Below, piece after piece: positions 12,955-32,697 of a stretch of 64,000 bases of DNA. The position numbers and the translations under genes are program-made. The notes beneath the pieces are model-generated. The model was not told the DNA's origin. It saw only the letters and a list, made by a program, of their open reading frames with translations, and did no database searches. Origin of the DNA: an uncultured Candidatus Saccharibacteria bacterium (lineage in GTDB: Bacteria; Patescibacteriota; Minisyncoccia; Phycocordibacterales; UBA918); NCBI GenBank assembly GCA_964350735.1, contig CAYGKO010000001.1, positions 182,578 through 246,577 of the forward strand. Direction: 5' to 3'. The stretch's first letter is position 1, and each line of letters opens with the position of its first letter.

Positions 12955-14675
12955 TAAACGAGATTCGAAATGGTGAGCCGAAGATTTTAGTAGCGGGTAA
13001 TCACGTGAAGATTATCCAGTCTATTCTTGATTTTGACTACGCAGCGGGGAAAGAATCACCGAGTGTGGTGGGGATTATTTCGGCCGGTCGCAAAAGCCAG
13101 AAGCTTTTCTGGGGTGATGGCGAGGTCTTGGTGCCGGTAGTGCCCGACGTTGAGGCAGCAAAAAAGTCTGCATTTGAGCCAGATTTCCTGCTTTGTATCA
13201 CTTCAGCTTCAAGTACACCACGGATGGCCAAAGCCTTTTTTACCGCCTTTCCGGCGGCTGTCGGCGCCCATCTCTTTGCTGAAGGGGTGGCCGAGCGCGA
13301 TGCCCTTCAGTTGATCGAAGCGTATGGCGAAGAGAAGCTTATTCTCGGTGCTTCGGGGGTTGGTCTTTGTGTACCAGGCAGCCTTAAACTAGGCGCTATT
13401 GGCGGTGTTTTAGGGGCTCGTCTTGCTGAGCTCGGTCGGACACGAGGTCACACGGCGGTGATCTGTAGTTCTGGAGGCATGGTCAACGAACTCATGTACC
13501 AAGTAGTGACGGCTGGTAGTGGAATTAGTTTCGCTGCCTGCTATGGTGGTGACCGTTTCCCGGTCACTTCCCCGCTACAATGGCTCATGCACGCTCAAAA
13601 TGACCCAGAGACTAAAGATATTGTCTATTTCGGTGAACTAGGTGGTGATGATGAATATACGCTCCGAGGCGCCATTACAGCTGGCGATATCACTAAGCCA
13701 GTCTATGCCTATATTGCTGGCCGCTACGAAAGTCAGGATGAAACCATCCAATTTGGCCATGCCAAAGCCCTCGCTAAAGCTGAATCTGAGACAGCAGCGG
13801 CTAAAATGGCTGCTTTGGCTGCTGTTGGAGTGAACGTCAGTGATACTTTTAATGATTTTATGGCAGCTTTTACTTTGCTTTCACGTGAAACCAGTGTTGG
13901 CGAGTCAGTTCGGGACTGGAGTGAACGCCCGGCTCATCTACAGCCGACCGCCTACTCAGCTCCGGCTTATACGGGTGCCCATTCGGCCAGCTTTACCGAA
14001 GGTATTTTGGCTCGCATTCTCGGTCGCAGCAGTGTTTCACGGGAAACCGCTGCCTTTGCTGAACTAATCTTTGCGCAGTTGATCGATCATGGACCACATG
14101 TGTCAGGAGCGGTAAATACCATGATCACTACACGAGCTGGCCGTGACCTTAGCTCAGCCCTGGCTACAGGTGTTCTGACGGTTGGTGATCGCTTTGGTGG
14201 CGCTATCAACGGTGCTGCTCAGATTTGGCACGATGCTGTTTCACGTGGCATCACTGCCGATGATCTGGTGACAGACTACAGCCAGCAGCGCCGTTATATT
14301 TTAGGTATCGGACACCGAAAATACTCAGTGTATAAGCCAGATCCGCGCGTACAAGCCTTGATTGAGCATGGTAAAAATGTTCTACGTGAAACACCGCACC
14401 TTGATTTTGCCTTGTCAGTTGAGACAATCACCGCTAAAAAGCGCGCTAACCTGATTTTGAATGTGGACGGTGTTATTTCGGCTCTATTTACAGACTATTT
14501 GATTGCCAAAGAAGACTTTACAGCGAAAGACATCGCTGAACTTATTGATATTGAATTCTACAATGCCTTGTTTCTCATTCCTCGTTCAGTAGGGTTTGTT
14601 GGAAATTACCTGGATCAAAAGCGGATTGACGAGGGATTATTCCGTTTGGGCGACAAAGATAGCTATAATTTTTAG
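12951..14675 (+). CDS. aclA: ATP-citrate lyase alpha-like subunit (CoA-binding SucD-like plus citrate-synthase-like domain)
   Basis: LDFDYAAGKESPSVV, catalytic-His motif QFGHAKA, and citrate-synthase-like HGPHVSGAVNTMITTRAGRDL...VGDRFGGA...ILGIGHR...ILNVDG...GFVGNYLDQKR. A 4-nt overlap with aclB suggests translational coupling. Confidence 0.7.
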   Translation: MINEIRNGEPKILVAGNHVKIIQSILDFDYAAGKESPSVVGIISAGRKSQKLFWGDGEVLVPVVPDVEAAKKSAFEPDFLLCITSASSTPRMAKAFFTAFPAAVGAHLFAEGVAERDALQLIEAYGEEKLILGASGVGLCVPGSLKLGAIGGVLGARLAELGRTRGHTAVICSSGGMVNELMYQVVTAGSGISFAACYGGDRFPVTSPLQWLMHAQNDPETKDIVYFGELGGDDEYTLRGAITAGDITKPVYAYIAGRYESQDETIQFGHAKALAKAESETAAAKMAALAAVGVNVSDTFNDFMAAFTLLSRETSVGESVRDWSERPAHLQPTAYSAPAYTGAHSASFTEGILARILGRSSVSRETAAFAELIFAQLIDHGPHVSGAVNTMITTRAGRDLSSALATGVLTVGDRFGGAINGAAQIWHDAVSRGITADDLVTDYSQQRRYILGIGHRKYSVYKPDPRVQALIEHGKNVLRETPHLDFALSVETITAKKRANLILNVDGVISALFTDYLIAKEDFTAKDIAELIDIEFYNALFLIPRSVGFVGNYLDQKRIDEGLFRLGDKDSYNF

Positions 14676-16427: not shown

Positions 16428-16498
16428 CGGGGTGTAGCATAGTGGTAGTGTACGCGCTTTGGGAGCGTGTGGTCCGGGTTCGATTCCCGGCTCCCCGA
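16428..16498 (+). tRNA. tRNA-Pro(UGG); no encoded CCA
   Basis: Acceptor CGGGGTG/CTCCCCG with one T-T mismatch. Anticodon stem CGCGC/GCGTG with loop TTTGGGA. T arm CCGGG-TTCGATT-CCCGG. Resembles E. coli tRNA-Pro. An 11-bp-arm hairpin (16404-16429) abuts the 5' end, and a terminator hairpin lies at about 16510-16535. Confidence 0.65.
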
Positions 16499-16556
16499 CA
16501 AATTAAGCAAAAGAAAAGCACCGTTAGGTGCTTTTCTTTTGGTATACTGGAGCGAT

Positions 16557-17438
16557 ATGGAACTATGGTTTTGGGCGGCGGTAGCAACCACTGTTTTAGC
16601 AGGACTAAGTAACTTTTATTTTAAGGTGGCAGCAAGTCGTGGTTATGATGCGGAACTGTTTGGTCTGTACGGTGGAGGGTTATCACTCGTTTTGGTGCTA
16701 ATAGGCTGGTTAACCTTCCCGGCTCCTTTGCTAGCGCAAGGGTTTATGTATGCTGCCTTGGCGTTTGGAGGTGGTTTATTAATTTCAGGCAATAACATTG
16801 GTAAAATCTATGCCTTGAGACATATTGATGCCACGGTGTATTATCCACTGTATAAGCTTCTCGCACCTTTATTGGCGATTGTAGCCGGTGTTACGTTCTT
16901 CAGTGAAAGATTCAGTACTTTTGAATGGTTCGGTATGACATTAAGTTTGTTAGTGCCTTTGATGCTTATTACAAAATCAGAGAATGGGCGTCAGAATAAT
17001 TTAATTAGTGGACTGCTACTTGTTCTAATGACAGGTATATTTTCAGCAGGAGGGGCTTTTTTATATAAATTAGCTAGTGATGCTGGTATGGCGACAGTAG
17101 CGATACTTTTGTATTCCTCAACAGGACTACTAATCGGTTCTTTGTTGACTATGTGGTACAAGTCAGGTATTAAAAATATCAAATTGAGAATTTTTGAAAA
17201 TACTAGTGTGGGCTTATTAATTGCAGCTAGTATGCGAGCGACATTAATTACGCTGGCCTTTGTTTGTACATTGTTTGCTTTTAAATCAAATGGGCCATTT
17301 GCTGTAGTGATGACAATTCAATCAATGTATATTTTGATCCCGATTGTGTTAGCAATTATTTTCTACAACGAACACTGGAATGCTCAAAAGGTTGCAGCGA
17401 TACTATTGTCGGTAGCCGCTTTGGCTCTTTTGGGATAA
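16557..17438 (+). CDS. EamA/DMT-superfamily transporter
   Basis: About 10 TM segments with duplicated EamA-like halves. Start reset to MELWFW because the tracked N-terminus runs over the tRNA and its terminator. Confidence 0.5.
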   Translation: MELWFWAAVATTVLAGLSNFYFKVAASRGYDAELFGLYGGGLSLVLVLIGWLTFPAPLLAQGFMYAALAFGGGLLISGNNIGKIYALRHIDATVYYPLYKLLAPLLAIVAGVTFFSERFSTFEWFGMTLSLLVPLMLITKSENGRQNNLISGLLLVLMTGIFSAGGAFLYKLASDAGMATVAILLYSSTGLLIGSLLTMWYKSGIKNIKLRIFENTSVGLLIAASMRATLITLAFVCTLFAFKSNGPFAVVMTIQSMYILIPIVLAIIFYNEHWNAQKVAAILLSVAALALLG

Positions 17439-17482
17439 GGAAGTGGGGTTTGCTATACTGATACAAATTAAAATGCAGATCT

Positions 17483-18406
17483 ATGATCACCCACTATTTC
17501 CGAACTATAAAAGATGCTGAGCTTAAGGTGCTGGATGAGGCGCGGGCGGGGGTGTGGACACATGTGGTGAGGCCAACAGACGAAGAGCTGGCCGAGTTGG
17601 TGTCGCTGTATGCACTAGATGAGGCGATCTTAGAAGATGCTAAAGACTTCTTTGAAGTCCCACGTATGGAGCGTAGTCAGGGATCAACGTACTTCTTTAC
17701 CCGCTATCCGTATGATGAACAAGAAGAAGATGCTGAAACAGCACCGCTACTGATCATTATGGGGGAGTCGTTTGTACTGACCATCACGCTTCGGGATGTG
17801 CCACAATTTAAGAAGTTTGTGACGGGGAAGGAGGTGGTGCATACAACCCAGAAAGCAAAGTTTTTCATTCAGCTAATGACCGCCGTCACTACTTCCTTTG
17901 AGCAAAAGCTGGTGCGACTACGACGTTCGGTGCATCGTGATCGAGCGAAGCTGCGCGTGATCAGTAACCGTGATATCAAACGATTGGTTGATTATGAGCA
18001 CGAACTAAACGACATGATTAGTGCCGTGGTACCGACCAACGTGTGGTTGCAAACGGTAACCAAAGGGAACTACATGCAGCTTTATAATGACGATGTGGAG
18101 CTGATGGAAGACTTGATGATCGCCAACTCACAGCTAGTGGAGTCGGCCCGGTCGCTTTTGAAGACGATTCAAAATGTGCGTAATGCCACTGAGGCAATTT
18201 TGACGAACAATCTGAACGGCACGATTCGAACGCTGACCATTTTGACCATCTTGCTAACGATCCCAACAATTATTTCTTCACTCTACGGCATGAATGTTGC
18301 GTTGCCGCTCATGGATAACCCGCTAGCGTTTTGGTTGGTGATTGTACTGATCTTAGTGGTGGTGTCAGCGACCGTGTATTTCTTTAAACGTAATCAGTGG
18401 TTATAG
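17483..18406 (+). CDS. corA: CorA-family magnesium/cobalt transporter
   Basis: C-terminal two TM helices with the signature YGMNV (GMN motif). Confidence 0.7.
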   Translation: MITHYFRTIKDAELKVLDEARAGVWTHVVRPTDEELAELVSLYALDEAILEDAKDFFEVPRMERSQGSTYFFTRYPYDEQEEDAETAPLLIIMGESFVLTITLRDVPQFKKFVTGKEVVHTTQKAKFFIQLMTAVTTSFEQKLVRLRRSVHRDRAKLRVISNRDIKRLVDYEHELNDMISAVVPTNVWLQTVTKGNYMQLYNDDVELMEDLMIANSQLVESARSLLKTIQNVRNATEAILTNNLNGTIRTLTILTILLTIPTIISSLYGMNVALPLMDNPLAFWLVIVLILVVVSATVYFFKRNQWL

Positions 18407-18407
18407 T

Positions 18408-19028
18408 ATGAAAAAGCAGATATTTTATATCCATGGTGGGAGCTCCTACCGCAATCAAGATGACTACATTCACGATCTGACTCATAAGAAATTATGGAGC
18501 CGGTCTGATACAGAGCCAACCATAAAGTGGCCGAGTACGTTGCGGGCGGCACTCGGTGAAGGATATCAAGTATTCTCACCATCAATGCCAAATAGCGATA
18601 ATTCGCAATACGAAGAGTGGAAAATTTGGTTTGAGCGGCACTTTGAGTTTTTGCACGATGATCTGACCTTAGTCTGCTGGTCGCAAGGTGGCATGTTCAT
18701 TATGCGTTATTTGAGTGAGCATGAGACGCCGTTTTCTATTAAAGCCCTTTTTATCCTGGCCGCACCAGTTGACTATTATGTGTCTGAAGATTCAAAAGAA
18801 GATGGCGGATATTTTTATGCTACACCAGAGAAGATTCCAGCTATTACTGAGAAAGTAGGGGAGGTGCACATCTTGCATAGCACTGATGATTTTGTGGTGC
18901 CCTATGAGCACGCCGAGAAATTAGCCGCTGCGCTGCCGGCAGCCACGCTCCATACCTTCACCGACAAGAATCATTTCTTGGTCCCCGAGCTGCCGGAACT
19001 GATTGACCTGATTAAAAAAGTATCGTGA
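18408..19028 (+). CDS. alpha/beta hydrolase, RBBP9/YdeN-like serine hydrolase
   Basis: N-terminal YIHGG, nucleophile elbow CWSQGG, C-terminal DKNHF. Confidence 0.45.
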   Translation: MKKQIFYIHGGSSYRNQDDYIHDLTHKKLWSRSDTEPTIKWPSTLRAALGEGYQVFSPSMPNSDNSQYEEWKIWFERHFEFLHDDLTLVCWSQGGMFIMRYLSEHETPFSIKALFILAAPVDYYVSEDSKEDGGYFYATPEKIPAITEKVGEVHILHSTDDFVVPYEHAEKLAAALPAATLHTFTDKNHFLVPELPELIDLIKKVS

Positions 19029-19039
19029 AATCGGGAAAA

Positions 19040-19075
19040 AGGGGGCGAAAACGCAGTTTTCGCCCCCTTTTTCAC
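19040..19075. terminator. hairpin GGGGGCGAAAAC-GCA-GTTTTCGCCCCC followed by a T-run
   Basis: Seen directly. Confidence 0.6.
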
Positions 19076-19130
19076 ACCCCCTTAGAAAGAAATACCCCCT
19101 TCGGCCGTCTTCACGTATAATGGTTCCCAC

Positions 19131-19727
19131 ATGGCAACTGGTAAACAGTCAAGCAAAATAGGTGAGAGCCACGAAGACCGTTTTTTGAAAGCGTTTGAAG
19201 AATATAGCGATGCGCTTTTTCGTCACGCTAGTCTTCGCATCAATGATCGAGAACGAGCCATCGATGTCGTGCACGACACATACACCAAGGTGTGGATGTA
19301 TGTGCGCAAAGGACACGACATCGAACAATTTCGCCCGTTCTTGTATAAGGTGCTCAATAACCTCATTATCGATGAATACCGCAAGAAGCGGGAAACTTCA
19401 CTCGATGCGTTGTTTGAGGTTGATGGAGTGGATGAAGGAACGTTTGACGATCTTTCAGAAAACACCGTTGAGCAGCTGGCAGCGACCATTGATGGCAAGA
19501 AGGCTTTCAAAGAACTCGAGCGATTACCGGATGAATACCGTGAGGTGATCATTCTACGCTTTATCGATGAACTTGGTCCTAAAGAGATCAGCGAACTCAT
19601 TGAAGAATCGGAGAACGTCATTTCGGTTCGACTGCACCGTGGTCTGGCCATGTTGCGGAAACTAATGCAACAAGAGGAAGCCAGTATCGAAGATCGCCGG
19701 CAGCTCAAAAGCCAAAAACAAAATTAA
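19131..19727 (+). CDS. ECF-type RNA polymerase sigma-70 family factor
   Basis: Region 2 (FRHASLRINDRERAIDVVHDTYTKVW) and region 4 HTH (EVIILRFIDELGPKEISELIEESENVISVRLHRG). Confidence 0.65.
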   Translation: MATGKQSSKIGESHEDRFLKAFEEYSDALFRHASLRINDRERAIDVVHDTYTKVWMYVRKGHDIEQFRPFLYKVLNNLIIDEYRKKRETSLDALFEVDGVDEGTFDDLSENTVEQLAATIDGKKAFKELERLPDEYREVIILRFIDELGPKEISELIEESENVISVRLHRGLAMLRKLMQQEEASIEDRRQLKSQKQN

Positions 19728-19732
19728 AATTT

Positions 19733-21151
19733 ATGAAACGTTTTTCAGAACAACTTAAGAAGCAATCAAACCAGACTCGAATGAGTGTGGCTGAAAAGCG
19801 TGATCTGACTGAGCGTCTGACTGCGTACATGGAATATCATCCGTTACCAAAAGAACGAGCCGAGATGACTGTTGCAGCACCGACTGAGGTGGTGAGTGAG
19901 TCATTTACGTTGGTTCGATTTAATACACCGCAGGTACGGAGTTTCTTGGGGGTGTTTACCGTGCTGCTCATTATTGTTGTGCCAATTGTGGCGGAACGAT
20001 CAGTACCTGGTGATGTGCTGTACCCAGTGAAAGTGCAATTTAATGAAGAGGTACGATCAAGCTTGTCATTATCACCGTACCAAAAAGTAGAGTGGGAAAC
20101 CGAGCGACTAGAACGACGAATTTCTGAAGCGCGACTATTGGCGAGTGAAGGAAAGCTCACCGAAGCCGTACAGGCTGAAGTAGCTAAAGCAGTAAAAGGA
20201 CATTCGGATGCAGCCCAAGCTGAGATCGCAGCGATCACTGCAAGCGATAGTGACGAAGGAGCCCTCGCGGGTATTACCTTTAATGCGGCTCTGGAGGTGC
20301 AGTCAGAAGTGCTCGAACGAGATAGTGAGAATGGAGTTGGTAATGACGGACTCTCATTAGTAGTAGATGAAGCGATCGCAGCTGCTGGACCAGATAAACC
20401 AGCTGCACCATCATACGAAAAGACCTTGGCTCGACTCGAAGAAGAAACCACCCGTGCGACCGAATTTTTTAATAGTATTACTGATGTCGCTTCGGCAGCT
20501 CAGAAAGCAGACGTTGAACGTCGCCTAGCGGATATCGGACGGAAGGTAGATGAAGCAATTGCATTACGAGCTAATGAATCAGAAACTGATAAAGCGGCAG
20601 CAGTGACACTACTGACCCAGTCTCTCTCTGATACGCGCAAGCTCATCAGCTTTATGACGGCTATTGATGTAAAAAATACGGTAGAAGTAGAAGACTTAGT
20701 GCCGGTAGTATTCACATTAGAAGAACGCATTACAGCAGTGCGATTGCAGATTACTGATGCTGAAGAGGCGATCAAGACAGTTGAAGGACAGATCTCTTCT
20801 ACTGAAGATGCGGCGCTCGTCGAGAAGGCTACCTTTGGTTTGGAGACGGTTGTAGTCGCTATTGCGACTGCGAGTAGTAGCGTAGCGAGCACCACCGCTC
20901 CCGACATTGAGACAGCTGAAGTAGCAGCGCAAGAAGCTACCGACGCATTGGCAGATCTCACGAAGACACTTTCTTTAGCGCCAAGTACTCCAGTAGTACC
21001 AGAAGAGGCGCTAGCGAGTAGTACTCTAGAAGTGGTGGAAGAAAAAGCTACTAGTACTGAAGAAATAGCTGAAACAGAGCCAGTAGCGGTAGAAGAAACT
21101 GAAGTGGTACCAGCAGTTGAAGCAACTACTACTGTAGAAGCTGAAGTGTAG
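19733..21151 (+). CDS. single-pass membrane protein, putative anti-sigma factor (DUF5667-like) with acidic low-complexity C-terminus
   Basis: Lies immediately downstream of the ECF sigma gene. One TM helix (FLGVFTVLLIIVVPIVA) followed by a coiled region. The C-terminal Ala/Glu/Thr/Val-rich tail explains the long spurious antisense ORFs. Confidence 0.45.
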   Translation: MKRFSEQLKKQSNQTRMSVAEKRDLTERLTAYMEYHPLPKERAEMTVAAPTEVVSESFTLVRFNTPQVRSFLGVFTVLLIIVVPIVAERSVPGDVLYPVKVQFNEEVRSSLSLSPYQKVEWETERLERRISEARLLASEGKLTEAVQAEVAKAVKGHSDAAQAEIAAITASDSDEGALAGITFNAALEVQSEVLERDSENGVGNDGLSLVVDEAIAAAGPDKPAAPSYEKTLARLEEETTRATEFFNSITDVASAAQKADVERRLADIGRKVDEAIALRANESETDKAAAVTLLTQSLSDTRKLISFMTAIDVKNTVEVEDLVPVVFTLEERITAVRLQITDAEEAIKTVEGQISSTEDAALVEKATFGLETVVVAIATASSSVASTTAPDIETAEVAAQEATDALADLTKTLSLAPSTPVVPEEALASSTLEVVEEKATSTEEIAETEPVAVEETEVVPAVEATTTVEAEV

Positions 21152-21167
21152 AAAGAATACACAATGA

Positions 21168-21210
21168 CAAAACCGGGTGGGTTCCTAAAAGGAATCCACC
21201 CGGTTTTGCT
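21168..21210. terminator. hairpin AAACCGGGTGG...CCACCCGGTTTT
   Basis: Seen directly after the anti-sigma gene. Confidence 0.55.
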
Positions 21211-21362
21211 CTAAACACTTTAAATATAAAAAGAAAGAACCCGCTGAACACTAGGTCCAGTCGGGAACGCCTACCAAAAGGTAGAAAGTAGATACGCAAA
21301 CAAACACTTGTTCGCACGGGCCGTCCTAGGACGGCCCGTGCTGGTTTCGCAGGCTCAGAACC

Positions 21363-22079
21363 TTACTGCGCGCGGAAGTGACCGCGCCGACGGGCCTGAC
21401 GCGCAGCTTCGGCGGTGCCCGGCTGGCCGAGGCGACGAAGCGCGCCGGTCCCACGTTTCTTCGGCATCGCGTGGCGGCTGACGAAATCTGTCGTGGAACC
21501 GCGCTTGATGTTGAACGCCTGGTCTGTTGAAACGACCTGGCCCATTTCACCGTGGAACTTGCCTGCGGCGTTCTTCGAAGCCGAACTCACCGCCGCGCCT
21601 ATGTCCTTGAGGGTGCGCGCGGCGACCGTCGCGAAGTTTTCAATGTCCAGGCATTCGCCTGCGACGATCGCGTTGTAAGCGGCGAGCAGGGAAGGACAGT
21701 CGGTCCGGCAGGTCATCGTTTCGACCACATCGGTGGAAGCGCCGATCAGCGGGTTAATGGCGATGATGTCGAACAGCGCTTCGGCACGGGTTTCATCGAC
21801 GACCGCGAACAGGTTCACGATGGTGCCCCGATGGAGAATCAGCACGTCGTCTTCGACAAAGGCGATCAGCGTCGGCGTGCTGGCTTCAGCGATGATCAGC
21901 GCGGGGGCGCCGTCGTTCTTGAAGAGGTAGGCGGTGCCGCCATCGATGTCGATCTGATCGAAGTCGTTGAAGCTCATTTCGGAGCCGCCGAGCAGATTGG
22001 GACGCGCCAAGGCTGTGGTCGCGGCCATTGCGGAAACGGCGAGCGCAGCGGGAGCGGTCGTCTGATGCAGATGTTTCAT
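21363..22079 (-). CDS. secreted hypothetical protein encoded in a GC-rich (~62%) island
   Basis: Start reset to MKHLHQTTAPAALAVSAMAATTALA, a signal peptide. The composition differs sharply from flanking DNA. Confidence 0.4.
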   Translation of the reverse strand: MKHLHQTTAPAALAVSAMAATTALARPNLLGGSEMSFNDFDQIDIDGGTAYLFKNDGAPALIIAEASTPTLIAFVEDDVLILHRGTIVNLFAVVDETRAEALFDIIAINPLIGASTDVVETMTCRTDCPSLLAAYNAIVAGECLDIENFATVAARTLKDIGAAVSSASKNAAGKFHGEMGQVVSTDQAFNIKRGSTTDFVSRHAMPKKRGTGALRRLGQPGTAEAARQARRRGHFRAQ

Positions 22080-22407
22080 TTTGGTCTCTTTCGTTTGTAG
22101 AAACACCGGTCTGGGGCCGGTTTGTTTGGTTTGCGTGTCTTTCAAATAACAATCCATCCAACCGGATGGATGTCACAAGAATGACAACCACCTCCAGCTG
22201 GTGATCTTCTAAATATAAACCTAATTTCACATTCAACAACCTAAAAATGTGGTGTAATTTGAATAGTAATGATTTTCCCAAGTTGTCAAATTTTGTCGTA
22301 TCTTTCCCGTATAAAAATGAAAAACCGTATGACGGTTTGTCATACGGCTCAAATGTGAAAAAGAGCGGTGTCCTACGCGGCGACGAACCGCCGCGTAGGG
22401 TTGGGCG

Positions 22408-22845
22408 CTACAGCGCCCCTTGCATCCGGTCCAGCCTATCGGCCAGCGAGGCGCCCGGCGGAACGCCGATGCTGCCGCCGACCATGCTGCGACCGCGCTG
22501 CATGAAGATCATATCACGATCGTGGCTGTAGACGCCGACCCCCATCATGCCAACGGTCGTGTTGAATTCAAGCAGACCATCTTCCGCGACATTGTCGCAT
22601 GAATCATCATTCGTGATGTCAAAATCGAACGGCATGGGATGAAACGGGCTACGCTGCGCGGCTCTGAAGCCGATCGCATTGAGTAACTCCAGTATTTCGA
22701 GCTTGCGCCCACAGATGGAAATTTCTTCGGTCACAAAACCGACCACCATGATGGGGCCAATGGGCATCATGATTGGGGTTTCAACGACCGCATTAATGGC
22801 GAACGGGCAGCCTGCGCAGGCTGCGATAGACTTGATGGGACCCAT
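22408..22845 (-). CDS. hypothetical protein (145 aa) in the GC-rich island
   Basis: Start reset to MGPIKSIAACAGCPF, preceded by a strong SD, AGGAGGT. Tandem hairpin terminators lie downstream at 22318-22395. Confidence 0.4.
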   Translation of the reverse strand: MGPIKSIAACAGCPFAINAVVETPIMMPIGPIMVVGFVTEEISICGRKLEILELLNAIGFRAAQRSPFHPMPFDFDITNDDSCDNVAEDGLLEFNTTVGMMGVGVYSHDRDMIFMQRGRSMVGGSIGVPPGASLADRLDRMQGAL

Positions 22846-23029
22846 GGCGGGAACCTCCTGTTGATATTCCGGACGTTGCCGGTACTGCTCAATTGCCTTG
22901 CAAACCCTTCTGGCTGCAATAAAAAACAAATGAGTGGCGATATTGTACGTATGAATTTACGATTGTCAATTAATTACATACCACATAATTACTTGACGGT
23001 TTTCTCACTTAGCGCTATATTCTAAATAC

Positions 23030-23149
23030 ATGCAATTAGCATATACAACAACCGTACCAGGAGTCTCGGAAGCTGCGCACCAAGTGCTGCTGGCTCTCCT
23101 CCTGATTCTCGCCTTGATGAGCGGGCCGGTTGGAGTATATGCCCAGTAA
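23030..23149 (+). CDS. 39-aa hydrophobic peptide, leaderless, behind a sigma70-like promoter
   Basis: TTGACG-17 nt-TATATT promoter at about 22995-23023. The ORF MQLAYTTTVPGVSEAAHQVLLALLLILALMSGPVGVYAQ is followed by hairpin AAAACCGGTTC...GAACCGGTTTT at 23168-23205. Confidence 0.2.
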   Translation: MQLAYTTTVPGVSEAAHQVLLALLLILALMSGPVGVYAQ

Positions 23150-23395
23150 GTTGCACTACTTCGAAAATAAAACCGGTTCGTTCTCACAAGGAATGAACCG
23201 GTTTTGTTTACGGAGCTTTGTAAGCGGATAGCGATTCGCTGCTGGTGGCCAACCGGTATTTGGCCATCATCAGCGGATCGTACAGGTTGTCCAATAGGGC
23301 CACAAGATCCGTATCGAGCAGGGCCTCTTGAGGACAGCCTGTAGATCGTTGAAACGAGACTGACAACATCAGTCATGAGAGGGTGAGGAAGTAAA

Positions 23396-24511
23396 ATGGG
23401 ATTTATGCTTACGCGTGCGAATGAATTGTCGTTGCGGGACCTGGCAGTCTTACATCAGGCAGGAACATCAGTAATGAGAACGGCTCATGCTGGTAATATC
23501 TATCCAGCGAATCTGGCTGTGGCAGCAATGGGTATCCCGATGGTACTCCATGATCGGGTGAATGGCATGAAAGATCTTGCCAGCCATCCACACTTGATGA
23601 TCGAAAATGGTCAATCGCTGAAGATTGGTGATCAATCCTGTATGGTACTTCGGGCAAAAACTATACCACAAGTATGTCCATCTGGCTGTACCTTGGGTGA
23701 AGAACATGCTGCCGCGCTGCGGCTTGCATTACCTCAAGCAGAAGTTCAGACGATGACCGACTATCTGGAAAATCATCAGGAGTTGGCATGGAGTATCTTG
23801 GAAGAGGTTGGGAAAATGTCTCCCAAACATTTCTATCGGTACATGGATGCTGACGGAAGGATCAGCAAGTCACTACCACTGGGCGAGGCTCTTGATTGGG
23901 TCGAACTGTCCCAAAACGTGTATGGTTTTACCAACCTAAACGAAGGTTGGATTCCAGGTAATGTGGCTTACATTTTGCTGTGTGCAATCATCGAGTCCGT
24001 CAGAACAGGAGAACCGTTCGTCTATCACACTTCGGGTGTTGATATGGACGGCTATATGGACAGTCTATTGTCTGAGCTTAATCTCCTGTACTGTCATTTG
24101 CACAAGCGGGGTATTGCTCCGTTTGAGACACTTGATTTTCGGCTGGTCACCATTACTTCGATGCGCTTTTGTGGTCCAGACGCGACTGCGTCAGCACGTA
24201 AGGAGTTGTTTGAGAAGCTTGTTGCCTATAAAGCGTTTGAGGCGTCAGTAGGTGCCCGGATACAGGCTGTACCAAAGAATCAGCGGAGAACGGTCGTCGA
24301 AGCCATTGACGAAGAGCGTCGGCCACGCCAGCGATTGATTATGGAGATACGCTCTGAGTGCCCGGGGTTTGACTATGATCCTGCAACACCAACGTTCTTC
24401 TCTCAGTATGATGTTCCGACAAGAGGATTCTGTTTGGTCGAAGAGGCGGCGGCTACGTCGTTTGCTGACTTGGCTACCTTGAATACCATGATGGGTCGAT
24501 TTGACCCTTAA
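23396..24511 (+). CDS. hypothetical protein (371 aa)
   Basis: SD GAGGGTGAGGAAG lies upstream of the ATG. No family recognised. Confidence 0.4.
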   Translation: MGFMLTRANELSLRDLAVLHQAGTSVMRTAHAGNIYPANLAVAAMGIPMVLHDRVNGMKDLASHPHLMIENGQSLKIGDQSCMVLRAKTIPQVCPSGCTLGEEHAAALRLALPQAEVQTMTDYLENHQELAWSILEEVGKMSPKHFYRYMDADGRISKSLPLGEALDWVELSQNVYGFTNLNEGWIPGNVAYILLCAIIESVRTGEPFVYHTSGVDMDGYMDSLLSELNLLYCHLHKRGIAPFETLDFRLVTITSMRFCGPDATASARKELFEKLVAYKAFEASVGARIQAVPKNQRRTVVEAIDEERRPRQRLIMEIRSECPGFDYDPATPTFFSQYDVPTRGFCLVEEAAATSFADLATLNTMMGRFDP

Positions 24512-24577
24512 GGGTCAGGTCTCAAAGAAACTTTCGCTCGCTGGGTTTTACTGGCGAGCGATTTATTTTATACTCAA

Positions 24578-25535
24578 CTATATGAAAATTATTGACTTGC
24601 ACCAAGATCTGAAACTATCGTTACTCCGACCGGAATTATTAGATGTTGCTCATCGGGCTAGTCCGCAGACTAATTTCTCCCAGTTAGCATCTTCAGATGT
24701 TGCCATGTTGTTATGTACTGGTTTTCCGGTACCAAATGATGGAGACTATTTTAAGAAAGAAAATTATACAGATTTGTTTGCTGATATTGAATGGTATAGA
24801 TCTTATACAGAAGTGAATTCGGAGTGGATGATGGTTGAGGATCGTGACGATCTTGAGGCTTGCATTAACGGCGAGCATCGCGGCCTACTGTTTCATTTAG
24901 AAGGCATTAATATGTTTACCGGGGAAGCCGATGATTGGGACAAGTTAGCAGCACTTCATGAATCAGGTTTAAGATCGATTGCACTTACGTGGACTAAACA
25001 GAATTCCTTGGCAGGAGGAAATGACACTCCTGAAATTGGCATTACTACATTGGGGCACGAAGTGATTAAATGGGCGCTCGATAACAAGTTAATTATTGAC
25101 TTGGCTCATTTAAGCCATGCTGGCTTTGCCGACTTTAGTAATAAGTATGATTTACCAATTTTAGTTTCACATGGAGCGGCGCAAAAATACTGCACTGATC
25201 CGCGAAATTATTCTGATGAAGAATTGAAGGCGATTGGAAATTCCGGCGGTTGTTTTGGGATGTTCTTTTCTAAAAAGTTTGTTACCAGTACACAATCCTG
25301 TGCCATAGAGGACGTGATCCGGCAGATTAATCACGTGAGGGATACTGCAGGCATCGATGCGGTCGCTGTAGGTAGTGATTTTGGTGGAATTGTGAGTGGT
25401 ACTCCAAAAGATTTGTCGTCAGTAACAGCGTTGCCCAAATTGCTTGATTGTTTGCAGCAACAAGGGTGGACGGTGGAAGAGTGTGAGAAGTTTGCCTACA
25501 AAAATGCTTTACGGGTACTCCAAGCATATTTATAG
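24578..25535 (+). CDS. membrane dipeptidase (peptidase family M19)
   Basis: IIDLHQDL, IALTWTKQNSLAGG, DLAHLSHAGF, ILVSHGAAQKYCTDPRN and AVGSDFGG match the renal-dipeptidase family. Confidence 0.6.
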
Positions 25536-25547
25536 ACACAAAGATAA

Positions 25548-26456
25548 TTAATCCAGATATTTCAGCCAATCGGCGTACTTAGAATTTTCACCCTGCACAA
25601 TTTTGAAAAAAGCGTCTTTGATTTCATTGGCAGGGGAGAGATCGAAGGTTTTGAGTGGAGTGCCGTCTTGGTCAATATTACTAATAGGGGAGACTTCAGC
25701 GGCGGTGCCAGTGAAGAAGGCACTGTCGAAGTCGGCTAGTTCGATGGGGGCAATATCGCGCTCGATGGTGGTGTAGCCGAGGTCTTTGGTGAATTCGATT
25801 ACAGCGTCGCGGGTGATGCCAGCGAGAATCTTGCCAAGCTTAGGGGTGTGTAGCTCTTTGCCTTTGATAAAGAAAATGTTTTCACCCGGGCCTTCGGCGA
25901 TATTGCCAGCGTGGTCGAGCAGCACGGCTTCAAGGTAGCCGTTTTTCTTGGCGAGCATAGTGGCTAGGATGGAGTTTACATAATGGCCACTGACTTTAGC
26001 GTCAGCTACGACACTGTGTTCAGAAATACGGCGGTAGGGAGAAATTTCAGCTGAGACGGCGTCGGCTAAGTACTGACCCCAGGCCCAGGCTGCGATGAGT
26101 ACTTGGGGCTTGTTGTTAGTAACGCCAACCCCAAGGGCAGAGCTGTCTTGGTAGACCAACGGTCGGATATAGGCAGAGGTGAGGTTATTCTCACGCAAGA
26201 CTGCTTTAACGGCTTCAGTTAGTTCTTCCTTGGTATAAGGAATCTCAAGATAGAGAGTACTGGCAGAATAAAAGAGGCGGTCGATATGTTCTTCGAGGCG
26301 GAAGATTTGAGTTTGTCCGTCGGTTGTTTTGTACGCGCGGATGCCTTCAAAGACACCAGAGCCATAGTGTAGCGAATGAGTAAGGGGAGAAACGCCACTA
26401 TTTTCTAGCGTTTGTAGCTGGCCGTTTAGCCAGACTGGCATGGTTGGTTCAAACAT
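25548..26456 (-). CDS. ilvE: branched-chain amino acid aminotransferase (class IV PLP enzyme)
   Basis: SLHYGSGVFEGIRAY and collinear similarity to IlvE. Confidence 0.65.
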   Translation of the reverse strand: MFEPTMPVWLNGQLQTLENSGVSPLTHSLHYGSGVFEGIRAYKTTDGQTQIFRLEEHIDRLFYSASTLYLEIPYTKEELTEAVKAVLRENNLTSAYIRPLVYQDSSALGVGVTNNKPQVLIAAWAWGQYLADAVSAEISPYRRISEHSVVADAKVSGHYVNSILATMLAKKNGYLEAVLLDHAGNIAEGPGENIFFIKGKELHTPKLGKILAGITRDAVIEFTKDLGYTTIERDIAPIELADFDSAFFTGTAAEVSPISNIDQDGTPLKTFDLSPANEIKDAFFKIVQGENSKYADWLKYLD

Positions 26457-26730
26457 AATGAGAGCAGTGTAGCATTTTTAGACCCGCCTTACATACAGCT
26501 CAGATAATGAGAAAACCGCCCAATTCATGAAAAGGGCGGCATTTCTCACACTGATCAAGTGTTGAAAGAAGAACTATTTCCGTTACATAAGCACCTGTAC
26601 TCATTTGGCGGAAGCTCTATCCTACTAGAGCATCAAAGGTTCTTCTAATTTTTGCTGTGTATAAGTACTTACTTAAGTATATTGCTAGAATTTGGTAGAG
26701 TAGGAGGGTTATTTAACTAAGTATACGACT

Positions 26731-27840
26731 ATGGATAGTTGGTTTATTACGTACATTAGTACGCAGGTACCGGAGCTGACGGTGACGTTGCCTATAGTAG
26801 GATTGGTTGATCTGACGGCCCCGGTAGTGTCACTACTTGTGTTCACACTACTTACGATTGCATTTATTATAGTACAGTCAGTAGTGTTGGTGCGTCTGCG
26901 GGCCTTATCAGCAAAGACGAGTAGTGATGTTGATGATGTGTTAATTGGAGCAGTGTCAGGGATTCGACCCTTTGTCTACATTTTGGTGGCAGGCTATGTG
27001 GCCTTACAGTTGTTTGCACTACCGACGGCAGCTGATCTGGCTGTAACGGGGGTCGTGTACTTTGTAGTAGTGTGGCAGATAGTTGAAATGGCGGTGAAGT
27101 TTGTTGATTATGGGGCTAAGCGATTCTTAGAAAAGGATGAAGATGGTGATGGTGAGGTTGACCCTGGTTCTGCTACGGCCTCTAACATGGTGGGGCTGAT
27201 GGCACGGATTGTGCTGTGGGCACTCGGTGGATTGTTTGTACTGTCGAATTTAGGAATTGAAGTGACGTCCTTGATTGCTGGACTCGGAATTGGTGGTATT
27301 GCCGTAGCGTTTGCGCTGCAGGGGATCTTATCTGACTTGTTTGCGTCGTTTTCAATTTACTTCGACCGGCCATTTCGGATTGGAGATTATATTGTGATTG
27401 GTGCAGATTCGGGAACGGTAGAAAAGATTGGGATCAAGAGTACCCGCATCCGCACCTTGCAGGGAGAAGAGTTGGTCGTGAGTAACGCCGAGCTGACTAC
27501 CGCCCGGGTGCAGAACTTTAAGAAGATGCAAGAGCGCCGGATTGTAACGCAGATTGGGGTGACCTATGACACTGATCAAGAGAATGTAGAGCTGATCCCT
27601 AAGATGGTGACGGAGATCTTCGGTACTCTGACCGGAGGACGACTAGATCGAGTACACTTCACGACGTTTGGTGATTCAGCGTTAATTTTCGACATTGTGT
27701 ACTACGTGGAGTCATCAGAGTACTCGGTATTCTTAGATATCCAGCAGGCGTTTAATGTCGCTCTACTGAAGCAATTCGCGCAAAAAGGAATCGAGTTTGC
27801 GTACCCAAGCCAAACTATTTATCACAAGCAGGTGGGCTAA
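26731..27840 (+). CDS. mechanosensitive ion channel (MscS family)
   Basis: Three TM helices followed by MscS beta-domain motifs GIAVAFALQGILSDLFAS and RIGDYIVIGADSGTVEKIG. Confidence 0.65.
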   Translation: MDSWFITYISTQVPELTVTLPIVGLVDLTAPVVSLLVFTLLTIAFIIVQSVVLVRLRALSAKTSSDVDDVLIGAVSGIRPFVYILVAGYVALQLFALPTAADLAVTGVVYFVVVWQIVEMAVKFVDYGAKRFLEKDEDGDGEVDPGSATASNMVGLMARIVLWALGGLFVLSNLGIEVTSLIAGLGIGGIAVAFALQGILSDLFASFSIYFDRPFRIGDYIVIGADSGTVEKIGIKSTRIRTLQGEELVVSNAELTTARVQNFKKMQERRIVTQIGVTYDTDQENVELIPKMVTEIFGTLTGGRLDRVHFTTFGDSALIFDIVYYVESSEYSVFLDIQQAFNVALLKQFAQKGIEFAYPSQTIYHKQVG

Positions 27841-27885
27841 AAGAATAAAAAAGCGGCGGGCCAGTTGGCCCGCCGCTTTTTTATT

Positions 27886-28968
27886 TTACTCAAGTTCGCG
27901 TTCTAGTAGTTCTGCCAAGAAGGGGATCAGCGTATCTTTAAAGATTTTTGCCTTGCGGGGAAGATCGCCCGTAATGCTCTCAGCTAGACTGAGGCCAGTT
28001 TCTTCTTTGATGGTGCGATCGACGTATGAAATAGTAATAGCATTGAGACTGCCATCACCTTGAGTGCTGTCGTCCCCTCGAGTTACGATAATGCCGATCG
28101 CGTCACCATCAGTATTGAGGACAGGCCCTCCCGATACACCAGACACACCAATGGCAGTGCCAGTGAGACTAAAGAGATCGGCGTAGTTAGAGCCGAAGGT
28201 AAAGAGATCAAAGATACTTGAAGTAGCGACACGTTGTTGCGGGGTGAAGGTGAGATCACCAGCAATGATGGTGTTGCTCGGGTAGCCACCGATAGTGACG
28301 GGGTCGCCATAGAGACTGCGCGGAGGCAGAGATACATTAGGTTGGATAGCGGGTATGACATTAAACATTGGTTGATTATCAATACGTCTAGTGGCATACA
28401 AAAGAGCATAGTCGCGTTCACCCGTACCACGCGGCTTGGCTGCAGTGACCAAGTCAGCGTGTTCATATACCCAAGCGGGTGAGATGTATAAGAGTTCAGC
28501 TTCGTAGGTAGGGGAGGCAGGACTGCCGGTGCGAACAATACATTCGGTTGTAGCGTTGTCTGACATGTCTTCCAGCAGTAGGAACTGCGCGACGTGTGCA
28601 TTAGTAAGGATTACTCCATCAGTCCCAATAAAAAATCCAGAGCCAGTAGTGCTGCGCACGAGAGCATCAGTAGTATATTCACAAAAAATGTTCACTAACG
28701 TTTCTTTGATTGGGGCGCTAGCAGGTCGAACTGGTTCGACACTGCCCAGTACCGCTGCTTGTTGGTAGAAAGCATTAGTAATGAGGATATCAGGGATATT
28801 GCCGCCGTATTCGTACTCAGAGGGAAGCCGAGTGAGTGTACCGTCAGTCACTTCAGCTGTTGGTTCATCCACTCCCTCGATCAGCTGGTTCAGTTGATCC
28901 GCTAGGCTGTTGGTGAGCCCAAGATATCCGATTAGGATGCTGGTAAATATATCGCTTAAGAATTGCAT
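27886..28968 (-). CDS. secreted trypsin-like serine protease (S1 family)
   Basis: GSGFFIGTDGVILTNAHV contains the His and GVSGGPVL the Ser of the catalytic triad. Confidence 0.6.
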   Translation of the reverse strand: MQFLSDIFTSILIGYLGLTNSLADQLNQLIEGVDEPTAEVTDGTLTRLPSEYEYGGNIPDILITNAFYQQAAVLGSVEPVRPASAPIKETLVNIFCEYTTDALVRSTTGSGFFIGTDGVILTNAHVAQFLLLEDMSDNATTECIVRTGSPASPTYEAELLYISPAWVYEHADLVTAAKPRGTGERDYALLYATRRIDNQPMFNVIPAIQPNVSLPPRSLYGDPVTIGGYPSNTIIAGDLTFTPQQRVATSSIFDLFTFGSNYADLFSLTGTAIGVSGVSGGPVLNTDGDAIGIIVTRGDDSTQGDGSLNAITISYVDRTIKEETGLSLAESITGDLPRKAKIFKDTLIPFLAELLERELE

Positions 28969-29040
28969 AGATTTCTCTCAAGTATAGCAAGCAGGGCTAG
29001 AAATCGAACAGGATAAGTGCTAGAATATCGCCCACAGAAA

Positions 29041-29111
29041 CGCGGGATTAGTTAAATGGTATAACATCTGCCTTCCAAGCAGAGGTCAGGAGTTCGATTC
29101 CCCTATCCCGC
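29041..29111 (+). tRNA. tRNA-Gly(UCC); no encoded CCA; integration target
   Basis: Acceptor GCGGGAT/ATCCCGC, anticodon stem TCTGC/GCAGA with loop CTTCCAA, T arm AGGAG-TTCGATT-CCCCT. The 3' 26 nt overlap the integrase ORF. Confidence 0.75.
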
Positions 29112-30567
29112 ACATAGTTGAAAAATCAGCATTCTTAGGGGTCCTTGCGAGCATATCGTAAGGACTTTTAAGTTGTGGTTGAGCCATTTTCTTATCTTTG
29201 AGCAAGGAGTTCGAAAGTACCTCATAGGCCATTTCTCGTTTACGCTCTGGAATTGCTTTCAAATACCTAGATTTGGCTCTACTACTGGCTATAAATAGCT
29301 TTTTTGTACGTTCGAGAGTAACTAAAGGGTCTTGGGTATTTTGTTTGAGATTGTTGAGGGATTTTGTCAGTGCGATACGGCTATGTTTAATTTCTGCCTG
29401 CTTTGCCTCATACGTTTCTTTGTTGATGCTCTCAGCTAGATACGTATCAAGTAGTTTATTTTCACGGACTTTGAGTATATCCAATTCACGCTGTGTGTTT
29501 TCAAGATGAGTTGTGTCTAATTCTCCCTCATGCTCAAGTTTTTCCAAAGCTGCTTGGTACATGATTTCTATCAGCTCCTCATCAAAAGCAATATCATCAA
29601 AGATTGAGACAAATTGCTCTTCTAATTTCTCTTGGCGCAAGAATAGCCGTTTTTGGTCGCAGATACCTTTTCCATTAGTGCAGTGGTAGTAGATGTACGT
29701 TTTTTGTTTTTCAGCAGTGACAGCGCAGCCACAGACACCACAGGTGTATAAACCAGTAAGAGGGAAGACGTGTTTTTGAGTCCGTGGCTTAGAACCGCCG
29801 GTCATGACCGTTTGGCATTGGTCGTAGAGGTCTTTAGTGACGATGGTATCAAAGCTCGCTTCGTAGTATTTTCCTGAATACAGTATCACACCGTGATAAA
29901 TAGGATTCTTGAGAATGCGTTGAATCGGCCCACAGTGTACTTTCTTGCCAGAGCGGGTGCGCATGCCTTTGTCATACATGTGGCCAGCTAATTCACGGAT
30001 GCTGTAGAGACCAGTAGCGTAATGCTCATACATCATGCGGACATACTCACCACGTACAGGGTCAATGTATAAAGTCTTGTCTACTTTGTTATTGAGATAG
30101 CCAAAGGGTGCGTTACAAGGCCAACCACCCTGACTGAGTTTTTGACGATTACCCCGCTTCACGTTTTCGGATAAATCACGAGAGTATTGGTTAGCCATAC
30201 CAAGCTCCACCGCCATCATAAGGACGTTGTCTGAGGGTAGGTATTCTTTCTCGTAGGTCTGGATGCTTTTGAGAACGTTGCGTTGTAGTAGGTCAATGAT
30301 TAGTCCGCCATCAATAAAGTTGCGAGCCAGTCTGTCTAGTTTCCAGCAGAGAAGACCGTCAGCTTTGCCAGCTTGAATTTGCTGCATAACGTTATTGAAT
30401 ACTGGACGCCCGACAGTCTTGGCGGACATACTTTCATGGTAGACGGCGGTAATTTCAATACCAAGGAGAGCAGCTGTTTCTGTTAGCTCACGCTCTTGTG
30501 CATCGAGGGACTGGATTTGTCTGTCCTCAGACTCTTGTGACTTTCGGCAGTAGAGGATGTATTTCAT
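29086..30567 (-). CDS. large serine recombinase (integrase)
   Basis: N-terminal resolvase catalytic domain (YCRKSQESED...SLDAQ...DRLARN), recombinase domain, Cys-rich zinc ribbon (CGVCGC...HC) and coiled-coil tail. 493 aa. Confidence 0.8.
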   Translation of the reverse strand: MKYILYCRKSQESEDRQIQSLDAQERELTETAALLGIEITAVYHESMSAKTVGRPVFNNVMQQIQAGKADGLLCWKLDRLARNFIDGGLIIDLLQRNVLKSIQTYEKEYLPSDNVLMMAVELGMANQYSRDLSENVKRGNRQKLSQGGWPCNAPFGYLNNKVDKTLYIDPVRGEYVRMMYEHYATGLYSIRELAGHMYDKGMRTRSGKKVHCGPIQRILKNPIYHGVILYSGKYYEASFDTIVTKDLYDQCQTVMTGGSKPRTQKHVFPLTGLYTCGVCGCAVTAEKQKTYIYYHCTNGKGICDQKRLFLRQEKLEEQFVSIFDDIAFDEELIEIMYQAALEKLEHEGELDTTHLENTQRELDILKVRENKLLDTYLAESINKETYEAKQAEIKHSRIALTKSLNNLKQNTQDPLVTLERTKKLFIASSRAKSRYLKAIPERKREMAYEVLSNSLLKDKKMAQPQLKSPYDMLARTPKNADFSTMCGIGESNS

Positions 30568-30580
30568 ATGCTATTCATAG

Positions 30581-31413: not shown

Positions 31414-31746
31414 TAAATAGTTTCGAATTATGTGTATATAAAATCAAGTCACTTTCTGCTCCGCAGAAAGGCCGGCATCGGCCTTTCGCCTCACCCCACG
31501 AGGGGGCGAGGGCGAGACGAAAGCCGCTCCCGACCCACCCCAACCGTTTGAGGAAAAGAAAAAGATATATATAGTTGCGAGAACGAGGCTAGGTGTAGCT
31601 GCGCTTGTTCGCAGGAAATAGACACCGCATGTGTATCTAACATGTACCGCTTATACCGTGTGACTAATTCATTACTAAATTCCATTAACTACAGAATACA
31701 AAAAGACCCCGAGCTAACTCGGGTCAAAGTAGGGTTAGTTTTAACA

Positions 31747-32430: not shown

Positions 32431-32435
32431 AGTGT

Positions 32436-32642: not shown

Positions 32643-32697
32643 TACATACAGCGTATGTAATTGCTAACTTTGATTCTACATACTATAGTTAGCACAT
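32643..32697. promoter_or_regulatory. divergent promoter/operator region with inverted repeats TACATAC-AGC-GTATGTA and TGCTAACT...AGTTAGCA
   Basis: Seen directly between the XRE gene and the GIY-YIG gene. Confidence 0.35.

Follow-up and report, generated by a model that had tools for sequence, protein, structure and literature searches.

Phage morons (Juhala/Hendrix; PMC3594210) are additions that are seen by synteny, that deviate in GC content from their surroundings and that have a promoter and a terminator of their own. A survey of horizontal gene transfer (HGT) in Patescibacteria reported that 83% of the transfers detected into these organisms came from other Patescibacteria (PMC12455944). 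The locus described here recalls both. It lies in a stretch of 64,000 nucleotides (the window) from the chromosome of an uncultured Candidatus Saccharibacteria bacterium (contig CAYGKO010000001.1, positions 182,578 to 246,577), where two genes of high GC content, encoding proteins of 238 and 145 amino acids (aa), stand within an otherwise conserved gene order. We consider it probable that this island is a lineage-specific insertion of around 1.85 kb, consisting of two horizontally gained ORFan genes in the chromosome of an uncultured bacterium of the Candidate Phyla Radiation (CPR; Patescibacteria). The insert would be flanked on one side by the stop codon of an anti-sigma-like DUF5667 gene and on the other by the promoter of a conserved, leaderless gene for a small membrane peptide, with the two unrelated ORFans on the strand opposite to that of their neighbours and each forming a self-contained 'moron-like' expression unit.

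The insertion site in related species and in independent assemblies

The host belongs to a poorly sampled CPR/Patescibacteria lineage. Among the GTDB species representatives, the best matches of the M19 dipeptidase encoded to the right of the island were found in Patescibacteria, Parcubacteria and Saccharibacteria metagenome-assembled genomes, at just 35% identity, and the 371-aa protein encoded in between had no match in this set. A search of 5.8 billion clusters yielded two relatives only of the latter protein, with 43-45% identity. Two related species could be compared over the locus: species A (Logan contigs L008-L011, GC content 0.52) and species B (L012, L013 and L015, GC content 0.44). 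Both share with the window the order tRNA-Pro, CorA, hydrolase, sigma factor, DUF5667 protein, small open reading frame (ORF), leader, 371- or 381-aa gene and M19 protein. In both, the DUF5667 stop codon is separated from the ATG of the small ORF by 22-25 nt, with no gene in between. Since two syntenic relatives have just these few nucleotides at the site, the island appears to be a lineage-specific insertion at a conserved intergenic position. Orthologues at the same locus in relatives, which the first-pass annotation of this DNA had named as the finding that would speak against an acquisition, were not recovered, the site being empty in both species.

The borders of the insert can be read from the signals around it. 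The small ORF is preceded by a promoter of the form TTGACR-16/17-TATATT, the -35 box of which sits within the last DUF5667 codons in the relatives. The 3' end of the DUF5667 gene reads GTAGAAGC in the window as compared with GTTGACGC in species B, and the former looks like a decayed copy of the ancestral -35 box. On the right, the promoter, the small ORF and its terminator are all conserved in both related species. Based on this comparison the small ORF, its terminator and the leader of the 371-aa gene appear to be native and to mark the right boundary of the insertion. A tiny leaderless ORF behind a consensus-like promoter had been assigned to the island before; the ORF exists, but it is a conserved native gene and not part of the insert. 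It follows directly after the DUF5667 gene in the order of all three species, is 34-39 aa long and has a Ser/Thr-rich N-terminal part, one hydrophobic helix and a C-terminal SG(S/P)VGV. In the window, the 5' end of its mRNA (23039-23054) is complementary to the 3' end (23127-23142).

The GC shifts at the island are sharp and the genome is metagenome-derived, which is what one would expect if reads of a GC-rich organism had been wrongly joined into the contig, a possibility that had been raised with the first description of the island. Yet the contig re-enters the exact syntenic intergenic site after 1.85 kb, and four composition switches are needed instead of one. Moreover, native-type promoters (one with 11/12 consensus matches), an AGGAGG 8 nt ahead of an ATG and terminators are all correctly placed with respect to each coding sequence (CDS). 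The same sequence is present in an independent Logan assembly, in which contig ERR3534985_38895 (19.7 kb) is 100% identical over 16.4 kb (window 16474-32845) and spans every transition, and on a 408-kb NCBI contig the flanking genes are accompanied by sequence that encodes the last 75 residues of the 145-aa protein. Considering that a chimera would have to leave and re-enter the chromosome at one syntenic intergenic spot, a misassembly is very unlikely. The insertion and its surroundings are composed as follows:

Left flank: tRNA-Pro, CorA, serine hydrolase, extracytoplasmic function (ECF)-type sigma factor and DUF5667 protein (in the usual position of an anti-sigma factor).
21152 to 22992, no strand assigned: lineage-specific insertion, approximate extent, reaching from the stop codon of DUF5667 up to the -35 box of the promoter of the native small ORF (~1.85 kb).
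21168 to 21208, no strand assigned: bidirectional hairpin terminator after DUF5667 (A-run, 19-bp stem, T-run; fold -34.6 kcal/mol, z -8.7).
22993 to 23215, plus strand: native right boundary, with promoter TTGACG-17-TATATT (22993-23021), leaderless 39-aa ORF (23030-23149) and terminator (23159-23215).
Right flank: 39-aa ORF, 371-aa protein without assigned function, M19 dipeptidase, aminotransferase, MscS and trypsin-like protease.
Small-ORF locus in the relatives: L008 7629-7810 and L012 2703-2915.

Composition and layout of the two gene units

The first-pass annotation had described the island as a sharply bounded block of around 62% GC. The shift in GC content is there and is beyond chance, but there is no single block, and the value of 62% fits the left part only. 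By segment, the GC content is 0.625 (21314-22100), 0.381 (22101-22360) and 0.588 (22361-22860), as compared with a mean of 0.455 for the window. A sliding window gave 0.60-0.65 at 21300-22050, 0.40 at 22050-22350 and 0.50-0.60 at 22350-22950 over the background of 0.455, and outside the island the 790-bp windows of the 64 kb did not exceed 0.548 (standard deviation 0.040). The island has the shape of two CDS-sized GC-rich blocks, with AT-rich non-coding DNA (38-42% GC) between them and on the flanks, and the GC-rich parts are limited to each CDS and the hairpin directly 3' of it. The non-coding DNA of the island (GC 0.38-0.43) matches native intergenic DNA, for which the value is 0.416 +/- 0.052 (n = 30).

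Within the genes the deviation is most pronounced at the third codon position. For the 238-aa gene (GC 0.628) the GC content at the first, second and third positions (GC1/GC2/GC3) is 63.2/48.5/76.6%, and for the 145-aa gene (57.1% GC overall) it is 58.2/43.2/69.9%. The GC3 of the 62 other ORFs in the window is 0.437 +/- 0.080, with a maximum of 0.599, which makes both genes outliers (z = 4.1 for the 238-aa gene at 0.766 and 3.3 for the 145-aa gene at 0.699). At third positions C/(C+T) is 0.67-0.77 versus 0.43 in native genes and G/(G+A) is 0.75-0.77 versus 0.48. Such T->C and A->G shifts point to a GC-rich mutational background and not to selection for particular codons.

One may ask whether the two frames are genes at all, as long frames could result from the rarity of stop codons in GC-rich, non-coding DNA. 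The proteins have no homologues, the single-sequence AlphaFold2 models are poor (predicted local distance difference test, pLDDT, 47 and 37), a 182-codon antisense ORF exists, and among the gene calls of the NCBI contig the 145-aa gene is reduced to a C-terminal fragment of 75 aa and the 238-aa gene is absent, although these calls were probably degraded by the atypical composition of the genes. Nevertheless, both frames show a strong three-base periodicity in the called frame only (GC3 > GC1 > GC2, with GC3 exceeding GC2 by 0.27-0.28), a pattern that favours real coding sequence. The ORFs fill the GC blocks exactly, an AGGAGG is suitably spaced from a start codon, promoters precede the genes and terminators follow them, and we calculate from base composition that a 264-codon open frame at such a GC content has a probability of around 5e-4 by chance. 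It is therefore extremely improbable that the frames are spurious. The elements of the two units are:

21314 to 21341, minus strand: 28-bp perfect palindrome GCACGGGCCGTCCTAGGACGGCCCGTGC (12-bp GC stem, CTAG loop), 21 nt past the stop codon of the 238-aa gene; fold z -3.8.
21363 to 22079, minus strand: CDS of the 238-aa ORFan, with coding composition; also called independently on the Logan contig.
22080 to 22215, minus strand: structured 5' untranslated region (UTR) of the 238-aa gene (-43.9 kcal/mol, z -4.0).
22212 to 22289, minus strand: candidate weak promoters of the 238-aa gene, TTGACA (22289-22284)-15-TACTAT or TTGTTG-16-TATATT (22217-22212), read by eye.
22322 to 22350, minus strand: canonical intrinsic terminator of the 145-aa gene (12-bp stem, then TTTTTCATTTTT), of recipient-like composition.
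22372 to 22399, minus strand: GC-rich 11-bp hairpin CCTACGCGGCG-N6-CGCCGCGTAGG, 8 nt past the stop codon of the 145-aa gene.
22408 to 22845, minus strand: CDS of the 145-aa ORFan; also called independently on the Logan contig.
22942 to 22969, minus strand: near-consensus sigma70-type promoter TTGACA-16-TACAAT of the 145-aa gene (11/12 consensus matches).

Basically the two units follow one plan, in which an AT-rich sigma70-type promoter (close to consensus in the 145-aa unit, weak in the 238-aa unit) would drive a GC-rich CDS that is followed by a GC-rich hairpin past the stop codon and by a terminator of the recipient type.

The 238-aa protein starts with an Ala-rich, signal-peptide-like segment (residues 1-25, ending in ALA|R). 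Next come an acidic region rich in beta structure and a helical region that has three Cys, and the C-terminal tail is strongly basic, with a net charge of +8.6. The N-terminus MKHLHQTTAPAALAVSAMAATTALA|R fits, as judged by eye only, the signal-peptide plan of a basic n-region, a hydrophobic h-region and an AXA cleavage motif; we calculate a mean Kyte-Doolittle hydropathy of ~1.5 for residues 9-25. Given the Ala-rich signal-like N-terminus, the three Cys and the basic tail, the product is probably exported through Sec. The candidate promoters of the gene were not reported by the consensus promoter scan, the Shine-Dalgarno sequence (SD) is weak, and the leader would measure 125-175 nt, according to the promoter used. 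In this leader the first-pass annotation had recognized an operator belonging to the island. The underlying inverted repeat, ATCCATCC-AACC-GGATGGAT, does exist, at 22152-22171 and thus 11 nt away from the position given, but its reading as an operator is not supported. The repeat forms the tip of the long main stem of the stable 5'-UTR fold, is present as a single copy in the window even when up to three mismatches are allowed, and is placed downstream of both candidate -10 boxes, by 34 nt or more; no regulator gene was found within the insert. Perfect 8-bp inverted repeats are common in native intergenic DNA (65 window counts in 7231 bp), so that this one is not beyond chance. A 5'-UTR stem-loop fits better, being the more economical reading of the repeat. 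The 28-bp palindrome on the other side of the gene, which had also been noted before, is present 2 nt from the coordinate first given and is beyond chance; no copy of it was found in viral contigs. It is probably a terminator, or a hairpin without U-tract that stabilises the mRNA, and the bidirectional terminator at 21168-21208 could possibly act as a back-stop for the 238-aa gene as well.

The 145-aa protein is acidic (isoelectric point 4.6); its N-terminal third is hydrophobic, residues 10-13 form a CxxC, and a signal peptide is absent. It would be a cytoplasmic or membrane-associated protein. A lipoprotein reading of its N-terminus (IAAC) was rejected, as the 9 residues before the Cys are too few for a signal peptide, and the two island proteins were found to be unrelated to each other on comparison, which excludes paralogy. 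The strong SD reported for this gene is an AGGAGG at 22859-22854, 8 nt upstream of the ATG. The predicted promoter stands back-to-back with the native small-ORF promoter, the two being divergent and 24 bp apart, and the mRNA leader would be ~90 nt long. The hairpin terminators reported earlier correspond to the T-run terminator (22322-22350) and the GC-rich hairpin (22372-22399), both beyond chance; together they have a fold z-score of -6.9, and all hairpins of the island fold far beyond shuffled controls.

Homology searches and the origin of the genes

Neither protein was assigned to a family in Pfam, NCBIfam, PHROGs or PADLOC. A word-seeded search of the 5.8 billion clusters returned only the query itself for the 238-aa protein and nothing for the 145-aa protein, and an exhaustive HMMER search of 1.84 billion representatives with the 238-aa protein returned the query and two weak partial matches that were judged spurious (one of them, P0005, is a repetitive protein that aligned in 7 stretches, which is not meaningful). 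There was no sequence match in the PDB for either protein, no match of the island genes to plasmids and phages by tblastn and blastn, none in pattern scans of metagenome and viral contigs, and no homologue of either protein in species A or B. Foldseek, which was run with the model of the 145-aa protein only, gave noise (E > 0.1, template modelling score < 0.4), and the spacers of the island gave sub-threshold chance matches only when compared with known RNA families. Kinship with the GC-rich ORFans of species A was rejected on comparison. Both proteins appear to be ORFans, without relatives among ~15 billion public proteins, which agrees with their first description as unrecognised. The protein search that had been proposed as a way to the donor has thus been run, and without a significant homologue no donor lineage can be named.

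The codon positions offer another view of the donor. Regressions attributed to Lawrence and Ochman (1997) reportedly read GC1 = 0.615 GC + 26.9, GC2 = 0.270 GC + 26.7 and GC3 = 1.692 GC - 32.3. They predict GC1/GC2/GC3 values of 65.5/43.7/74.0 for the 238-aa gene (62.8% GC), where 63.2/48.5/76.6 was observed, and of 62.0/42.1/64.3 for the 145-aa gene (57.1% GC), where 58.2/43.2/69.9 was observed. Neither gene has a lowered GC3, and thus nothing suggests amelioration. The values speak for a recent acquisition from a donor of ~58-63% GC and are in line with the recent horizontal acquisition proposed before, the genes being a lineage-specific addition with the codon-position GC of such a genome. 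The genes were most likely gained horizontally and, given the lack of amelioration, recently; the donor would be an unsampled organism of higher GC content, which may belong to the same phylum.

Species A has three genes with a GC3 of 0.77-0.82 as compared with ~0.50-0.58 in their neighbours, and their third-position profile matches that of the island genes. They are located as follows:

L008 4605 to 5336, minus strand: GC3-rich gene of a 243-aa ORFan.
L008 8117 to 9262, plus strand: GC3-rich gene of the 381-aa orthologue.
L008 14027 to 14578, minus strand: GC3-rich gene of a 183-aa ORFan.

One, located between the genes for the hydrolase and the sigma factor and preceded by a perfect AT-rich promoter (TTGACT-17-TATAAT), encodes a very acidic 243-aa ORFan (GC3 0.82), and another a 183-aa membrane ORFan (GC3 0.82). 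The remaining one is the conserved 381-aa orthologue, with a GC3 of 0.77 as compared with 0.48-0.50 for the same gene in the window and species B; here GC3 is raised within the CDS only, next to a conserved leader. Because the 371/381 family was found only in this clade, the GC-rich version must have arisen within it. The donor of the island genes may accordingly have been an unsampled, GC-richer relative among the Patescibacteria and not a member of a foreign phylum, an idea that agrees with the survey cited above (PMC12455944).

These same genes lend some weight to a reading without transfer, in which the island genes are native genes with a gene-specific, GC3-rich codon regime, either old residents or of in situ origin, that were lost in both sampled relatives; some stand-alone genes of the clade would drift, or be pushed, towards a high GC3. 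Species A indeed has three genes of around 0.8 GC3 with the same C3/G3 profile, including a conserved syntenic orthologue, and the promoters, the second terminator and the spacers of the island are of native composition. The site of 22-25 nt in both relatives, with the -35 box embedded in the 3' end of DUF5667, nevertheless looks ancestral, there is no homologue of either protein in the relatives or elsewhere, and GC3 is not raised in the housekeeping genes of the window (NusA, trigger factor, PGK, PilB and RNase Y; 0.41-0.53). The latter values also disfavour an expression-linked codon regime for this genome. We know of no process that raises single genes to a GC3 of 0.77 in a genome with a GC3 of 0.44, and we consider a native origin unlikely.

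A further reading, to which we attach a similarly small probability, is that a 'second codon regime', restricted to the CDS, recurs in this rare clade and that the island is one case of it. It would comprise stand-alone genes of GC3 0.7-0.8 with a common third-position profile, at varied intergenic spots near the same sigma/anti-sigma locus across species; in one species the regime would have replaced the coding part of a conserved clade-specific gene, with native promoters and leaders remaining AT-rich. If true, it would imply an unsampled GC-rich sister lineage donating ORFs that recombine precisely at the level of the CDS or, alternatively, a novel mechanism that captures promoterless ORF-plus-hairpin units behind resident promoters.

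Some features bear on how a recent gain would have come about. The terminators at 21169-21208 and 23169-23206 are identical at 31 of 40 positions, with an alignment score of 31 versus 17.7 +/- 2.2 for shuffles, a score that is inflated by hairpin symmetry. No other terminator in the window has the form AAAACCGG...CCGGTTTT; the two lie 2.0 kb apart and bracket the insertion plus the small ORF. Their similarity may reflect a duplication linked to the insertion event, and we tentatively suggest duplication-associated or homology-facilitated illegitimate recombination at the terminator/promoter junction. The likeness of the terminators and the decayed -35 copy fit such recombination, without proving it.

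A mobile element may also have been involved. Around 6 kb to the right, tRNA-Gly(tcc) (29042-29113) is abutted by a serine recombinase gene (29086-30567, minus strand), beyond which lie genes for a RepSA/REP_ORF2-G2P-like replication protein, a 227-aa protein, a helix-turn-helix (HTH) protein and a GIY-YIG nuclease, with a GC content of 0.33-0.44. The region from 29042 to ~33000 and beyond is probably an integrated mobile element. In or beside it is a 416-aa ORF (33002-34252; GC 0.32, GC3 0.26), the compositional opposite of the island. The island could derive from a phage or mobile element, as a remnant or as cargo, for example as a moron left by a prophage or as cargo linked to this element; the moron-like architecture, the integration of the recombinase/Rep/HTH/GIY-YIG element at the tRNA gene and the similar ~40-nt terminators that flank the insert and the small ORF are in keeping with this. 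Against it, matches to PHROGs, viral contigs, phages and plasmids are lacking, the relatives share, in conserved order, the genes that separate the island from the tRNA-Gly element, the element is AT-rich where the island is the opposite, and the insert has no mobility gene. Taken together, this makes such an origin quite unlikely.

Several observations weigh against a recent horizontal gain of two GC-rich genes. The region 21152-22992 has no integrase, transposase or other mobility gene, and no clear target duplication is present at its ends, the pair of similar terminators being the sole candidate repeat. Recipient-like GC content in the non-coding DNA is unexpected for one contiguous chunk of high-GC DNA. 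The GC3-rich conserved orthologue in species A means that a high GC3 by itself is no proof of foreign origin. With neither donor nor homologue at hand, composition and phyletic absence make up the whole of the case for transfer, and since the nearest relatives are distant (43-45% identity for the flanking 371-aa protein), there is room for a loss in both of them.

Neighbouring features, significance and comparison with known systems

Some features of the surrounding DNA are conserved in their own right. Upstream of the 371/381-aa gene a structured leader is found in all three species (window 23222-23345, L008 7962-8082 and L012 3046-3160). In it, a long hairpin, conserved at its base (TCCGCTGC / CCAGCGGATC) and covarying at its top, is followed by a CAGGTT...AACCTG helix. 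Compensatory changes occur in 9 of the 35 predicted pairs, among three sequences only, and there is no match in Rfam; we regard the leader as a candidate for a new cis-regulatory RNA. Upstream of the ECF sigma gene, the three species share the motif GWAAG-N16-CGTCT, followed by TATAATGGTTC-N3-CATG, at these positions:

Window 19085 to 19133: ECF motif.
L008 ~5440 to 5485: ECF motif.
L012 ~680 to 717: ECF motif.

The motif suggests an autoregulated ECF-type promoter, with a sigma-gene leader that is very short or absent. Control of the island by the neighbouring ECF sigma factor was considered and rejected, as GWAAG-N16-CGTCT does not occur in the island. Elsewhere the window encodes type IV pilus genes, PGK, RecJ, RNase Y, NusA and trigger factor, and at 11803-14675 there are two adjacent genes with domains of the ATP-citrate-lyase/citryl-CoA type (Citrate_bind, ATP-grasp, CoA-ligase and a C-terminal Citrate_synt), a module that to our knowledge is unusual for a Patescibacteria genome.

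Given the tiny genomes of Patescibacteria and their dependence on other cells, any gene that they gain is a candidate for a role in host interaction or niche adaptation. In the present case the insertion point could be mapped almost to the nucleotide, and one of the products appears to be exported, while both proteins add to the pool of ORFans of unexplained origin. The main findings are that the insertion could be mapped precisely, that both genes are ORFans (shown by an exhaustive search for the 238-aa protein), that the leaderless ORF is to be reassigned to the native locus and that CDS-restricted GC3 spikes recur in the clade. There is a practical warning as well: the calls on the NCBI contig miss one island gene and truncate the other, probably as a result of the atypical composition. 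The single-gene GC3 spikes of species A suggest that inferring a donor from a 'foreign phylum' on the basis of GC content may mislead in this clade.

When set beside described systems, the island looks like a real and fairly ordinary horizontal gene gain, a small islet of two moron-like units. The integron cassette, a promoterless ORF with a 3' imperfect palindrome (attC), is similar in that each GC block consists of a CDS and then a GC-rich palindrome. However, the palindromes of the island are short, perfect hairpins without R''/R' (GTTRRRY) cores, intI and attI are absent, and the units are separated by AT-rich DNA that bears promoters. This reading was rejected, given that no attC cores are present at 21314-21341 and 22372-22399, that there is no IntI and that the nearest recombinase is of the serine type and 6 kb away. 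The phage morons come closer, as each island gene is an independent unit with a predicted promoter and terminator, has a deviant GC content and is extra DNA by synteny; the locus differs in that it is chromosomal and conserved, is not a prophage and gives no matches to phage families. With genomic islets the island shares the atypical GC and GC3 (z 3-4), the intergenic position between syntenic core genes, the absence from relatives and the ORFan cargo, whereas its ends lack an integrase, a tRNA and clear direct or inverted terminal repeats, its regulatory DNA looks native and no donor has been traced. Finally, the survey of transfers in Patescibacteria (PMC12455944) required a donor in the data set, unlike the present case, in which neither a donor nor a homologue was found among the public proteins searched; what both have in common is a small, streamlined CPR genome with compositionally deviant islands and single transferred genes, the donors in the survey being mostly other Patescibacteria.

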